Shown piece by piece: positions 23,329 through 26,300 of a DNA stretch of 64,000 nucleotides. The stretch's first letter is position 1; the number at the start of each line of letters is the position of its first letter. A program made the position numbers. The stretch lies in the NCBI RefSeq assembly GCF_054482525.1, contig NZ_CM137006.1. One strand, given 5' to 3'.

Positions 23329-26300
23329 AAACGACATTCGTGCCGGATGCACTGGAGCAGGCAGTATGGGCCGTCGTCCATCTGGCACCATCCATCACAG
23401 TAATAAAGGTTCTCAGTATGTATCGCTGGCCTACATGCAGCGACTTAAGGAAGCCGGATTACTGGTATCAACAGGGAGTCCTGGCGACTCGTATGACAAC
23501 GCGATGGAGGAGAGCATCAATGGTCTTTACAAAACGGAGGTAATACACCGTAAGAGCTGGAAAAAACCGGACAGAAGTGAAACTGGCCACACTAACGTGG
23601 GTGGACTGGTATAACAATCGACGATTACTGGAAAGGCTGGGCCATATTCCTCCGACAGAAACAGAAAAAGCTTATTATGCCTCCATCGGAAACAATGATC
23701 TGGCAGCCTGAGTTCACAGATAAAATACTCTCCAGGAAAACCGGGATGGTTCACCGGAGTGTTAAAGTGTGGCTTAAAATTATGCAGTTGCCGCCTGGCG
23801 GTCAAGACTGTCGCTACAGGATAAATCGCTCCGGTGAAACACAACTGCGCAAATCACCATACTGTGCATACGTATTACCGTGAAGGAGATCGGTGAGTTA
23901 CGGGGTTATTGGGTGATCTCCTTCCATGAAAATACGCAGAGCACTTAAATCGCTGCTGGCGCGCACTAAAAACGTGTCAACCTGGTTCCATTAGCGTAAC
24001 ATCAAAGCGAGCACTTAAGAAGCAGAAGAGCAACCTACAGGTTAACCCGAACCATATTAAATTCATAATCTTTTAACTGCTCAGACCTGATCACCAGAAA
24101 TCTGCCATTACCTGACTTAAATGATTTTGATAAAACAAGTGTGGTATCATATCTGGCTAAAACATAATACCACCCGTCATTATAATTCATCATTTCATAT
24201 TCTTTCTTGAATTGCGGCTTGTAAAAGCCAACAGAAAATGAAAAAACCCAGAAATATATGACAAAGCCGACAAGACATATTTCAGAAATATGTTTCTTTA
24301 CAAAGATACTCTCTGAAAAACATGATGCTGAAACACGGTGGCCACAGGTTCTTATAAGAAAAACAAGAATAAGGGATACCGCTACTGATAAGGTAAGAAG
24401 TTTTAATGCCAGATGATTCTTTAGCACAGAGAACTCAATCACCACCGGAACAAACAATAAGAATGAGGCAAGAAAAAGTCTGAAAAAGCTCAATTCATGC
24501 ATGCTTGCTTTGTTTTTTATTCCAAGAAAGAAAAGTACTCCCGCGCCCCATGAGAGAAACAGGATGACCATTATAGTAATTGCATGAAACAGGCTTCTTG
24601 CAACATCGTCAATACCTGCACTGACAACCCACCATGGGAAACCATAATAAAAAGAGACACCCCACCCGTAAAAATATGCACTTCCCCATCCGAGACATCC
24701 CATATAAGCCACAAATAAGGAAGAATTTTTGAGCAACGCGTTGCTGTTCATTTTTACCCCTGTAAAACTGGAATAAGTAACAGAATAGCATTGACATTGT
24801 CAAGATGAACAGCATGCATTGTAACAGTCTGCAGCTTATGTTCTCCGTGGATAATTATTCTTATTTCATGGTGATTTTTGTTATATTTTAAAATGCATAT
24901 CTCACCATTTAGTTTTTTATATCACAAAAACATAGTGATGCAATCATACACACCTGCCTCTATCGTACAGAGAAAACGGGCAATTATTTGTATTATTCCT
25001 TCATAACGACTTCAGTATACAGGATGACCGCAACCACGCTCCTTCTCCTGCCCGGGCGAAGTGCCTGGTTCAGACAATGACATTAACTGGCTGAAATTTT
25101 CGACGCGGTACAGGTCTCCCTGCTTTGAAAGGTGCCTGGCGCTGCAATTTTTTATCATTTGTTTTTGTATCCGGCAAAACACGTCTGCAAGAATCATTAT
25201 TCTCTTGCCTGAAGCTATCCGGCATCCTCAGGCATTTCACGCTTTATGAGCTGACATCATCAAGATGCGCCAGTAATTTTTTATTAATGACTTCAAACAG
25301 TTCCTGTTCATCATGGGTCAGATAATCCCAGATTTCTTTCAGATACATGCTTTGTGCAAGAGTGAGCCTCTGAATAAAAAACATACCTTCAGATGTCAGA
25401 CTGATTTTTTTAGCACGGCGATCCTCCCTGCTATCCATCCTTTTTACATACCCGGCTTTTTCTAAAAAATCTGTAATGCGGGTAATATTAGTTCTGGTAA
25501 ACTGCAGTTTCTGGCTTATCTCTGAAGGTGACAGACAATGACTCTCCGCTGTGAATAATGTGGTGAGAACCATGTACACTGAGTGATTTATTCCATACGC
25601 CCCCAGAAATTCAGATATATTATCCTGCATCCTTTTATTTGCGCGAATACAGAGTTGCATCAACAAATGTTCCTGAAAGGGATATGCGGGGTCTTTGTTT
25701 TTTTGGTGTCTGATTATTTTTTCTAATGTGTCTGTGTTATTCATTTCATTATTCTCCATATTACTGAAACACACTGTCTGTGTACAAGCGCGCATCAGTC
25801 ATCCGGTAAACTTCGACTTTCCACTACAATTTATTCCTGCCTGATTTCTGTATAACTGAGATATCCCGGCACAGCGGACAGATAAATTTCCTCAGATAAA
25901 AGAACATAAATGCTGGCTGCTGGCAAGTCTGTGAAAAAGGATTATCCATACTGCTCAGTAATCGCGGATAATTCATCAGCTCCCACACGCCTGTAGAGCC
26001 ATCCCTGACAGCCCTGGACATTCATGTCTCTGGCAATACGGAACAACGCTTCATTTTCAACACCTTCAAGTATTACGCCCCGGTTATGACAGGCAACAGT
26101 GTCTGCCACAGCATGGAGAAGCGGCATTGCACTCCTGTTTTTCAGGGCATAATGAAAAAACTCATGACTTATTTTTACCCGTTCAAACATCCCGGACAGT
26201 CCCCACATTAAGCCTGCATTTCCTGAGCCGAAATCATCCAGCCAGAGGGTGAAACGTTCTGACAAAAAACGTAACAGGGGGTCATCACCGGGTTTTAACG

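Follow-up and report, generated by a model that had tools for sequence, protein, structure and literature searches.

The TfpB family takes its name from Moraxella bovis, where tfpB is located within the pilin inversion region, adjacent to piv, its identity being confirmed by its position between the pilin segments and piv. The gene is found 0.4–0.9 kb from type IV pilin genes in four species (M. bovis, M. lacunata, M. equi and M. oblonga), and Moraxella tfpB holds the ‘downstream of pilin’ position typical of TfpY-type genes. A literature search on Moraxella tfpB yielded no usable paper; in papers on Acinetobacter baylyi, ‘TfpB’ denotes a PilB-like ATPase that is unrelated and was set aside. 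TfpY/FimB-like proteins are non-enzymatic, proposed pilin binders with three transmembrane (TM) helices and a two-sheet periplasmic domain of ~140 aa, and the paper describing them contains no mention of TfpB (PMC11841053).

The second name of the family comes from Salmonella STM1630, a solitary AT-rich gene next to, and divergent from, sseJ in a frmA/MCP hotspot. In regulator-mutant profiling, STM1630 clusters with SPI-2 and PhoP-type genes (PMC2639726); it is differentially expressed in macrophages, and the −10 box of its promoter is mutated in ST313 (10.1101/689075, 10.1101/450098). STM1630 is the sole orthologue tested, and its deletion caused no macrophage-replication or growth phenotype (10.1101/689075). 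Hypermotility was recorded in a screen (PMC4219756) and is not among the phenotypes confirmed by clean deletions in the abstract of a later report (PMC4534456); within that scope, a role as motility regulator was rejected.

A third described relative is CPT_434_68 of phage 434, the first gene after the Q82-type antiterminator and tR'. Temperate phages also encode small, non-enzymatic inner-membrane exclusion proteins acting at DNA entry, such as HK97 gp15, P22 SieA and T4 Imm. Nothing pertinent was found in the literature on TciA/TciB, on the phage 434 genome or on CP0168 and DUF3927.

A TfpB/STM1630-family gene downstream of a fimbrial operon

Within the window, i.e. the whole 64,000-nucleotide stretch of contig NZ_CM137006.1 (assembly GCF_054482525.1) analysed here, ORF calling gave a complete CDS of 238 aa plus stop codon on the minus strand (24035..24751). 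Its ATG start is preceded at a distance of 5 nt by AGGGG (24757..24761, minus strand), a Shine–Dalgarno-like motif read directly from the sequence. Since homologues spanning the full length occur in many genera and the family evolves under purifying selection (dN/dS 0.06–0.2, with dS saturated), the 238-aa ORF of the preliminary description is more than a chance reading frame: it is an intact gene on which purifying selection acts. Its low GC content, also noted there, was confirmed (37.5 %, GC3 37.2 %, compared with 46.1 % for the whole window). The accompanying claim that its composition is unlike that of its neighbours holds for sfaY and focH (47–48 %) and for the insertion sequence (IS) debris (~47 %), but not for the papX-like gene, which is equally AT-rich (38.6 %), so that the ORF stands apart from only some of them.

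The preliminary description had further treated the protein as an orphan with no assignable family, a view that has to be abandoned. The identical RefSeq protein WP_001087510.1 bears the name ‘STM1630 family protein’ in recent records, and Pfam PF27470 (TfpB) is precomputed for 113/113 homologues and for the cluster representative. Similarity to the name-giving M. bovis TfpB covers the full length, both by BLASTP (E=1e-19, residues 10–234, 24 % identity over 237 aa) and by end-to-end hhalign (probability 99.6 %, E=4e-24, 228 aligned columns), which places the protein in the TfpB family; similarity to STM1630 (51 % identity across 100 % of the length, 238 aa, PF27470), together with the assignment made by the source databases, places it in the STM1630 family. 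Pfam-A and NCBIfam scans gave no match for the ORF product or for STM1630 itself because the PF27470/STM1630 model is newer than the library copies scanned and absent from them.

The architecture shared within the family, i.e. a conserved aromatic/Gly helix with its loop at the N-terminus, additional TM helices and a short C-terminal beta domain in 230–260 aa, is predicted for the ORF product as well. TfpB of M. bovis and M. lacunata resembles it in length class, in the N-terminal motif AY.YGWG...YGYPWW and in the C-terminal beta segment YY(I/V)L...IL; in contrast, tfpB lies in an invertible type IV pilin segment by piv, whereas the UPEC gene has no nearby pilin or invertase gene. STM1630 is likewise AT-rich, solitary and adjacent to a virulence gene, but differs in its frmA/MCP locus, its mapped promoter and its macrophage-related regulation, its published deletions having given no robust phenotype. 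A transporter or transporter fragment, whose detection would have spoken against the preliminary description, was rejected, as neither similarity to a transporter family nor truncation relative to the homologues was found. The family is already catalogued, though uncharacterised, and the ORF encodes an inner-membrane member of it. For the gene alone, this amounts to an annotation clean-up: a named, uncharacterised family member that is neither an orphan nor fimbrial.

A polytopic protein with a C-terminal soluble segment had been proposed, which agrees both with hydropathy (multiple hydrophobic stretches, then a hydrophilic tail of ~60 aa) and with the AlphaFold (AF2) model, in which five long helices (residues 5–36, 47–78, 89–111, 116–136 and 149–181) precede a beta domain. 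The model was built from 44 sequences (pLDDT 80, pTM 0.72) and used in preference to one from just 20 close sequences (pLDDT 58). Considering also the K+R bias over the 44 sequences, which assigns the N-tail and loops 2 and 4 to the cytoplasm, the topology and structure prediction suggested in the preliminary description gives an N-in protein: residues 1–181 (24209..24751, minus strand) would form a short cytoplasmic N-tail and five TM helices, and residues 182–238 (24038..24208, minus strand) a small five-stranded beta domain of ~55 residues, predicted to be periplasmic, with the motif KKEYE...WYYVLARYD..LVLSKSF. A structure search with the AF2 model returned no significant match among solved structures.

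As predicted here, the protein resembles the TfpX/TfpY/TfpZ/FimB-like proteins of Pseudomonas and Dichelobacter in being small and inserted in the inner membrane, with its N-terminus in the cytoplasm and its C-terminal domain in the periplasm. By description, however, it is set apart from them, as five TM helices and a beta domain of ~55 aa are modelled, unlike the three TM helices and large two-sheet domain of the TfpY/FimB-like proteins, and no major type IV pilin gene lies directly upstream of the ORF. An exhaustive profile search gave no named match from Pseudomonas, Acinetobacter, N. meningitidis or Dichelobacter, and none of its named matches belongs to a species carrying TfpY-like genes.

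In the family alignment (44 sequences from four bacterial families), the most conserved segment is TM1 plus periplasmic loop 1 (residues 10–46, motif AYMGCLGWGSAYFYGWGxSFYYGFPWW), with a small-residue (small-xxx-small) stripe along TM1 (G21-A25-G29-S33-G37). Conservation across the family falls on Gly, Ala, Pro and aromatic residues, together with R52, R91 and K/R178, and no catalytic-type residues are conserved in the alignment. This pattern, strongest in TM1 and loop 1, suggests a non-enzymatic function.

The UPEC locus and loss of the gene

The nearest upstream gene is a papX/focX/sfaX-type MarR regulator gene (X gene; 25244..25795, minus strand), as assigned by Pfam MarR and the RefSeq annotation. 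It is separated from the ORF by an AT-rich spacer of 492 bp (24752..25243, minus strand), in line with the ~490 bp reported earlier. The IS debris reported on the far side is there too: IS3-family remnants, i.e. OrfA-like and integrase-core fragments recognised by IS3-type ORF motifs (22955..23711), begin ~320 bp downstream of the ORF, and in the identical region of UPEC 26-1 RefSeq annotates integrase-core and transposase pseudogenes, which correspond to roughly 22968–23711 of the window. Neither a sigma-70 consensus promoter nor a terminator was found on the minus strand of the spacer; the promoter/terminator scan scored no better than shuffled sequence, the sole minus-strand ‘terminator’ falling inside the ORF, and an Rfam search of 23300–25900 gave no match. 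The X gene is the constant upstream neighbour of the UPEC allele, and the two form a ~1.8 kb AT-rich block at the integrase-proximal end of pheV/pheU-type islands.

The preliminary description had suggested looking for co-occurrence with sfa/foc operons, and this association broke down on inspection. The same allele sits behind pap, sfa and foc operons alike, and only 60/1319 genomes with the X-gene flank have the X gene joined to the ORF, which is missing from the other ~95 %. No fimbrial, chaperone or usher Pfam domain was detected in the ORF product. On these three grounds, a component of the chaperone-usher operons (sfa/foc/pap) was rejected: the gene is a horizontally mobile single-gene cargo and no part of the F1C/S/P fimbrial machinery. 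Taken together, its identity, family and reading as mobile cargo are almost certain.

In most X-gene genomes, homology ends, among the matches listed, at window position 24793 (query position 658), i.e. 42 bp before the ATG. Since this breakpoint recurs in every partial match listed, and IS1 lies just beyond it in all three ORF-less genomes examined (clone D i14, Nissle and EC958), the absence of the gene looks like a single inherited deletion.

The distribution raises the question of whether the gene is a dispensable passenger of the UPEC island, i.e. an old captured copy drifting to loss that contributes nothing measurable. The allele is present in just 65/5426 complete E. coli genomes and absent from most X-gene genomes, with IS1 in its place in the three examined; IS1 interrupts it in EcPF5 and M15, strain 1105 has a frameshifted copy followed by ISEc16, and strain 536 retains only a 3' remnant, and the lack of a consensus promoter in the spacer points the same way. 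However, 58 genomes carry an intact frame at ≥99 % identity, the family is under purifying selection, the ribosome-binding site is intact, and loss in many lineages looks more like one inherited deletion than like repeated decay. We therefore consider a mere passenger unlikely.

Prophage and virulence-locus relatives

The commonest home of the family in E. coli is the ‘moron’ slot of the lambdoid prophage late operon, between antiterminator Q and holin. The phage 434 product and its homologues in EDL933/STEC prophages (PHROG 1521) are 59 % identical to the UPEC product over the full length, and PHROG 1521 matches at E=6e-90. In IMG/VR, 182 contigs encode a relative; among the 80 fetched, DUF3927/TciB comes next in 76, and holin/endolysin genes lie downstream within the flank in 56. 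The 434 allele is found in 682/5426 complete E. coli genomes, with a median of two copies, including EDL933. Stx phages carry stx in that same Q-to-holin slot.

The phage 434, EDL933 and other STEC homologues are the same predicted membrane protein, but in phages the genes downstream are DUF3927/TciB, one for a small membrane protein, one for a NanS-type esterase and the lysis genes, unlike those around the UPEC copy. No Q, DUF3927, esterase or lysis gene flanks the copy in the window, and DNA similarity to the prophage homologues ends at the ORF borders. At most, the window copy is an ancient capture.

The prophage position, just upstream of a pinholin/SAR-endolysin cassette, would also suit an oligomeric channel or lysis-timing protein, in which a glycine-zipper-like TM1 drives pore or holin-regulator assembly. 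The conserved small-residue stripe of TM1 fits this possibility, and Foldseek gave the weakest of hints to MscS-type channels (E 0.2–2, TM-score 0.15). However, none of these structural matches reaches significance, the gene stands alone and far from any lysis cassette on many chromosomes and plasmids, and a constitutive pore would be toxic, all of which makes such a function highly improbable.

Outside prophages, several pathogens have captured relatives beside virulence determinants. Family genes adjoin eltAB (LT)/STb on ETEC plasmids and the Shigella mxi-spa/virA region, 106 Shigella invasion plasmids (pINV) in PLSDB carry a relative, and the Citrobacter rodentium relative adjoins lpxR. In Neisseriaceae and Pasteurellaceae, distant members occur singly on the chromosome, outside any phage context. 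A genome scan for relatives, based on a 23-sequence alignment, and a second, word-indexed homologue search seeded with distant members, which added only Neisseriaceae and Mannheimia, complete the picture: among the named matches, the family is limited to animal-associated Enterobacteriaceae, Pasteurellaceae, Neisseriaceae and Moraxella.

These locations could reflect a host-adaptation or virulence factor of the envelope, AT-rich, silenced in H-NS fashion and host-induced, that would change envelope properties to the advantage of the bacterium, like the conversion genes of the same region (LpxR, Bor/Iss and the NanS-type esterase). Besides the relatives beside sseJ, lpxR, eltAB/STb, mxi-spa/virA and the UPEC fimbrial operons, and the origin of all named matches from animal-associated groups, the SPI-2/PhoP-type grouping, macrophage expression change and ST313 −10 box mutation of STM1630 argue for it. 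On the other hand, the STM1630 deletion is without an intramacrophage replication defect, the UPEC gene is often lost or disrupted, and adjacency to virulence genes may only mirror shared AT-rich, IS-rich mobile DNA. A role in host adaptation or virulence is therefore unlikely.

The Moraxella homology allows another interpretation, namely an accessory factor for pili or fimbriae that aids or modulates the assembly of the upstream chaperone-usher fimbriae or of cryptic systems for type IV pilins or pseudopilins; its Gly/aromatic TM1 might bind the conserved hydrophobic helix at the N-terminus of pilin-like proteins. In Moraxella the gene lies close to type IV pilin genes, the UPEC allele invariably lies at the 3' end of a pap, sfa or foc operon, a plasmid encoding the type IVb pilus CFA/III (cof) carries an 81 % allele ~6 kb from cofP, and the small-xxx-small stripe of TM1 would suit helix–helix binding. 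Nevertheless, no type IV pilin N-terminal motif was found in the window, nor within 5 kb at any non-Moraxella locus. The gene has unrelated neighbours in Neisseriaceae, Pasteurellaceae, Salmonella and Citrobacter as well as on plasmids and in prophages, ~95 % of the X-gene genomes manage without the gene, the M. lacunata copy looks frameshifted, and the architecture is unlike that of TfpY/FimB-like proteins. To our knowledge, chaperone-usher assembly requires no such inner-membrane factor. A pilus-related function thus appears quite improbable.

A possible envelope conversion or exclusion factor

The best explanation of the locus as a whole combines the identity of the protein and its mobile-cargo nature with a mechanism of envelope conversion or exclusion, and to this combined reading we would give a probability of roughly 45 %. 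In mechanistic terms, the invariant Gly/aromatic TM1 with its small-xxx-small stripe, the periplasmic loop and the beta domain might bind a conserved partner in the inner membrane or periplasm; such binding is suggested by the invariance of TM1, the periplasmic loop that follows it and the small periplasmic beta domain. The protein would then act as a phage-type lysogenic-conversion or exclusion factor, and not as an enzyme or transporter, for example by keeping foreign DNA or phage from entering at the inner membrane, or through some other change to an envelope machine. Judged on its own, a non-enzymatic, phage-derived conversion or exclusion mechanism is tentative and somewhat doubtful.

The exclusion proteins HK97 gp15, P22 SieA and T4 Imm serve as a working analogy only: they too are single small inner-membrane accessory proteins of temperate phages, but are typically expressed in the lysogen, in contrast to a gene behind the late terminator, which may be made mainly in lytic growth and not in lysogens. 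This late-terminator position, the phage-free distant members, the missing STM1630 deletion phenotype and the missing consensus promoter in UPEC all speak against the combined reading. In PADLOC-DB 2.0, no defence model matched the window protein or four relatives, the family having no model there; the sole match, AbiC with the ETEC allele (E=0.018), was not significant.

It is tempting to speculate further that TfpB/STM1630 represents an unrecognised class of phage-borne envelope conversion proteins, with a fold without solved relative, residing in the Stx slot and captured independently at virulence loci of UPEC, ETEC, Shigella, Salmonella and Citrobacter. In such a class, the near-invariant Gly/aromatic TM1 and the small periplasmic barrel would engage a conserved partner in the inner membrane, such as a DNA-entry route or a pilin-like N-terminal helix, thereby excluding phages or remodelling surface machines; in this extended form the proposal is rather unlikely.

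If the family does have an activity, be it phage exclusion, envelope remodelling or the like, it would be relevant to several major enteric pathogens and could be tested cheaply with existing strains. The family context is the more useful outcome, since one small membrane-protein family is found in the Stx slot of STEC, on pINV, beside ETEC LT, next to sseJ and in UPEC islands.

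Setting and family identity of the gene

The gene under study is a minus-strand ORF (24035–24751) that starts with ATG, encodes 238 aa and carries AGGGG 5 nt ahead of its start codon, as read from the sequence. Upstream on the same strand lie, at a distance of 492 bp, a gene for a MarR-type regulator of the PapX/SfaX/FocX kind (25244–25795; X gene), followed by those for the EAL protein SfaY (25942–26682) and a FimH-like adhesin (26986–28002). The region is identical to that of UPEC 26-1 (L015; L-numbers denote retrieved loci, with local coordinates), in the RefSeq annotation of which a complete F1C (foc) operon is followed by sfaY, papX and the ORF, then by IS3-type pseudogenes and other remnants, with an integrase adjoining tRNA-Phe at the far end. 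The preliminary description had therefore described the sequence correctly, i.e. the ORF, its neighbours and its low GC content were all found, while the claim that its composition differs from the neighbours holds only in part: its GC content is 37.5 % against 46.1 % for the window, and the papX-like gene is just as low (38.6 %).

Together, X gene and ORF form one AT-rich block of around 1.8 kb (24035–25795), which is common to pap, sfa and foc islands; the fimbrial structural genes have a GC content of 47–55 %. Both genes may have been acquired together. Within the ORF, a 14-pair inverted repeat with a T-rich tail (24141–24173, minus strand), flagged as terminator-like, spans the codons of the conserved WYYVLARYDTT segment and is probably a by-product of the AT-rich coding sequence. 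Just past the stop codon, the 10-bp TTAAGTGCTC occurs twice, 70 bp apart (24009–24018 and 23939–23948, minus strand), which could be due to chance or be the relic of an element end.

The protein had been thought to have no assignable family. However, the identical protein WP_001087510.1 is named ‘STM1630 family protein’ in the newest RefSeq records, all 113 homologues found among 5.8 billion clustered proteins carry the precomputed Pfam assignment PF27470, named ‘TfpB’ in the contig annotation, and the protein aligns over its whole length with TfpB of Moraxella bovis (BLASTP E=1e-19, hhalign 99.6 %). Scans of local Pfam and NCBIfam copies gave no match for the protein, since these contain no model for it. 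One E. coli member had been deposited earlier as ‘putative protein tfpB’, and the Salmonella protein is 51 % identical, its gene lying next to and divergent from sseJ, which encodes a Sif/lipase effector; this is the position of STM1630. The ORF is a real gene, and its product is a member of the TfpB/STM1630 family, of which it shows all the features tested. A transporter fragment was rejected as a candidate.

Because identical sequences stand in RefSeq under the family name, the gene is not new but a catalogued, though uncharacterised, member of that family. What is added here is a cross-pathogen picture, i.e. the location of the family in the prophage Stx slot, its repeated capture beside virulence loci, a predicted architecture and an IS1-associated loss from most genomes with the X gene, the IS1 itself being seen in clone D i14, Nissle and EC958.

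Predicted architecture

The AlphaFold2 model (44-sequence alignment; mean pLDDT 80, pTM 0.72) places helices at residues 5–36, 47–78, 89–111, 116–136 and 149–181, and five short strands within 184–235. Since the N-tail and loops 2 and 4 are rich in lysine and arginine throughout the family and loop 1 is acidic, the predicted topology is N-in, with five transmembrane helices and the C-terminal domain in the periplasm. The helices and the C-terminal strand domain agree with the polytopic protein with a soluble C-terminal segment described before.

The most conserved parts are TM1 and periplasmic loop 1 (motif AY.GCLGWGSAYFYGWG.S.YYG.PWW), followed by the TM5/C-domain junction. The conserved positions are glycine, alanine, proline and aromatic residues, plus R52, R91 and K/R178, and a G21-A25-G29-S33-G37 stripe runs along one face of TM1; the family conservation profile contains no catalysis-type constellation of acids, histidine or serine. 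Given this anatomy and the distribution of the family, the protein would be a non-enzymatic envelope protein whose TM1/loop 1 and periplasmic domain bind a conserved partner.

Phage, plasmid and chromosomal homes of the family

When 1.84 billion representatives were searched exhaustively with an HMM, only 70 clusters were recovered, the named ones belonging to Enterobacteriaceae, Pasteurellaceae and animal-associated Neisseriaceae, while a genome scan added M. bovis, M. lacunata, M. equi and M. oblonga. Members from Neisseriaceae and Pasteurellaceae are encoded by solitary genes, with neighbours unrelated between loci; Aggregatibacter actinomycetemcomitans has two paralogous members per genome in two strains (L116/L121 and L118/L119). 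Members were also seen on short contigs (2.7–3 kb) of two Firmicutes metagenome-assembled genomes, a Veillonella and a Lachnospiraceae bin (L125 and L126); both match the same residues at approximately the same identity as an Escherichia albertii locus in the same scan and are likely binning contamination.

A type IV pilin gene is nearby only in the Moraxella loci. In M. bovis, tfpB is flanked on both sides by pilin C-terminal segments, while in M. lacunata it has a pilin 3′ segment on one side and a complete type IV pilin gene on the other, beside a gene for a Piv-type recombinase. The name TfpB suggests a pilus or fimbria accessory factor, a role we consider improbable. The protein does not fit the TfpY/FimB-like pilin accessory proteins as described (PMC11841053): these combine three TM helices with a large periplasmic domain and are encoded downstream of the pilin gene, whereas the protein studied here has five predicted TM helices and no type IV pilin gene nearby. 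In M. lacunata NCTC10359 (L110 and L111, 5001–5733), the tfpB frame ends at 195 aa and similarity runs to residue 235, suggesting a frameshift. Its pilin inversion region is present on two separate contigs with opposite gene orders, which presumably show the invertible segment in either orientation.

In Enterobacteriaceae, the gene is mobile cargo. It matches PHROG 1521 (E=6e-90), and its phage 434 homologue (59 % identity) is the first gene past the Q82-type antiterminator and late terminator, followed by DUF3927 (TciB), a small membrane protein, a NanS-type esterase and a pinholin/endolysin cassette. This allele (at least 99 % identity) occurs in 682 of 5426 complete E. coli genomes. Two copies are typical, and O157:H7 EDL933 is one of these genomes, with the same gene order. 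Relatives are encoded on 182 IMG/VR contigs; among the 80 fetched, DUF3927 comes next in 76, a holin or endolysin follows within the flank in 56 and a Q82-type gene is upstream in 34. A channel or lysis-timing protein is nevertheless the least probable role considered. As the family resides mainly in the late region of temperate phages, which is rich in conversion genes, a role as a phage-type factor for conversion or exclusion is the single most likely one, at a probability of roughly 0.3; the family is not represented in PADLOC.

The prophage gene is almost always followed by the 52-aa DUF3927 and usually also by a 62-aa membrane protein (L014, phage 434, 5803–6206; L134, 5303–5470), i.e. 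a conserved three-gene membrane-protein module, which is missing beside the UPEC, ETEC, Salmonella and Citrobacter copies. On ETEC plasmids (L002–L006, 5987–8714 and 11714–11929), the allele lies around 870 bp from and divergent to eltA/eltB (LT), with estB (STb) 3 kb downstream, all embedded in IS elements; this cluster is found on more than 900 contigs. A CFA/III plasmid bears an 81 % allele, and 106 Shigella invasion plasmids in PLSDB (flexneri, sonnei, boydii and dysenteriae) a 58 % homologue, e.g. SF_p0168 of S. flexneri pCP301 (L105, 7001–7717), in an IS-rich stretch between the virA-side IS cluster and spa40. In Citrobacter rodentium (L008, 4863–6717), the gene sits beside lpxR, encoding a lipid A deacylase, at the chromosomal spot occupied by sseJ in Salmonella. 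In phage 434, lpxR is immediately upstream of Q (L014, 2666–5717), and both lpxR copies are 70–75 % identical. Since lpxR is near the family gene in both, this suggests that the frmA-adjacent locus on the chromosome is what remains of a lambdoid late region.

To our knowledge, experimental work on the family is confined to Salmonella. Regulator-mutant profiling places STM1630 with SPI-2 and PhoP-type genes (PMC2639726), and the gene is differentially expressed in macrophages, with a mutated -10 box in ST313, while its deletion affects neither growth nor intramacrophage replication (10.1101/689075, 10.1101/450098). One screen found a deletion mutant to be hypermotile (PMC4219756), and the phenotypes confirmed by clean deletions do not include that of STM1630 (PMC4534456). 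A host-adaptation envelope factor is a tentative alternative, ranking behind the conversion or exclusion role.

Linkage and loss in UPEC

The window allele is present in 65 of 5426 complete E. coli genomes, in 60 of them joined to a papX-type gene. The same unit of X gene, spacer, ORF and downstream backbone follows pap with papG-III (L001), another pap operon (L102), sfa (L101) and foc (L015), and the ORF therefore belongs to the shared 3′ end of fimbrial islands and not to one fimbrial type. The gene is not specific to sfa/foc operons, as two pap operons precede the same allele, and a fimbrial component was rejected as a candidate.

DNA similarity to the phage, ETEC, Salmonella and Citrobacter copies is limited to the ORF, and no phage genes flank the window copy. 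The ORF is split by IS1 in EcPF5 and M15, frameshifted and followed by ISEc16 in strain 1105, and reduced to a 3′ remnant in strain 536. A functionless passenger in UPEC is about as doubtful as host adaptation; pairwise dN/dS against enterobacterial homologues is 0.06–0.2, at saturated synonymous sites.

Around 1259 more genomes carry the X gene and its flank only up to window position 24793, 42 bp before the ATG; among the matches listed, this breakpoint is the same in every partial one. In clone D i14, Nissle and EC958 (L016, L103 and L104), the second of two IS1 copies begins just past the equivalent position, in place of the TfpB-family gene and around 6 kb of downstream island DNA, and the island is missing up to genes near the integrase. 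As these three strains share one breakpoint, they point to a single inherited IS1-associated deletion. They also carry a degenerate pap remnant (papI, papB and a frameshifted papA), with papX between the two IS1 copies.
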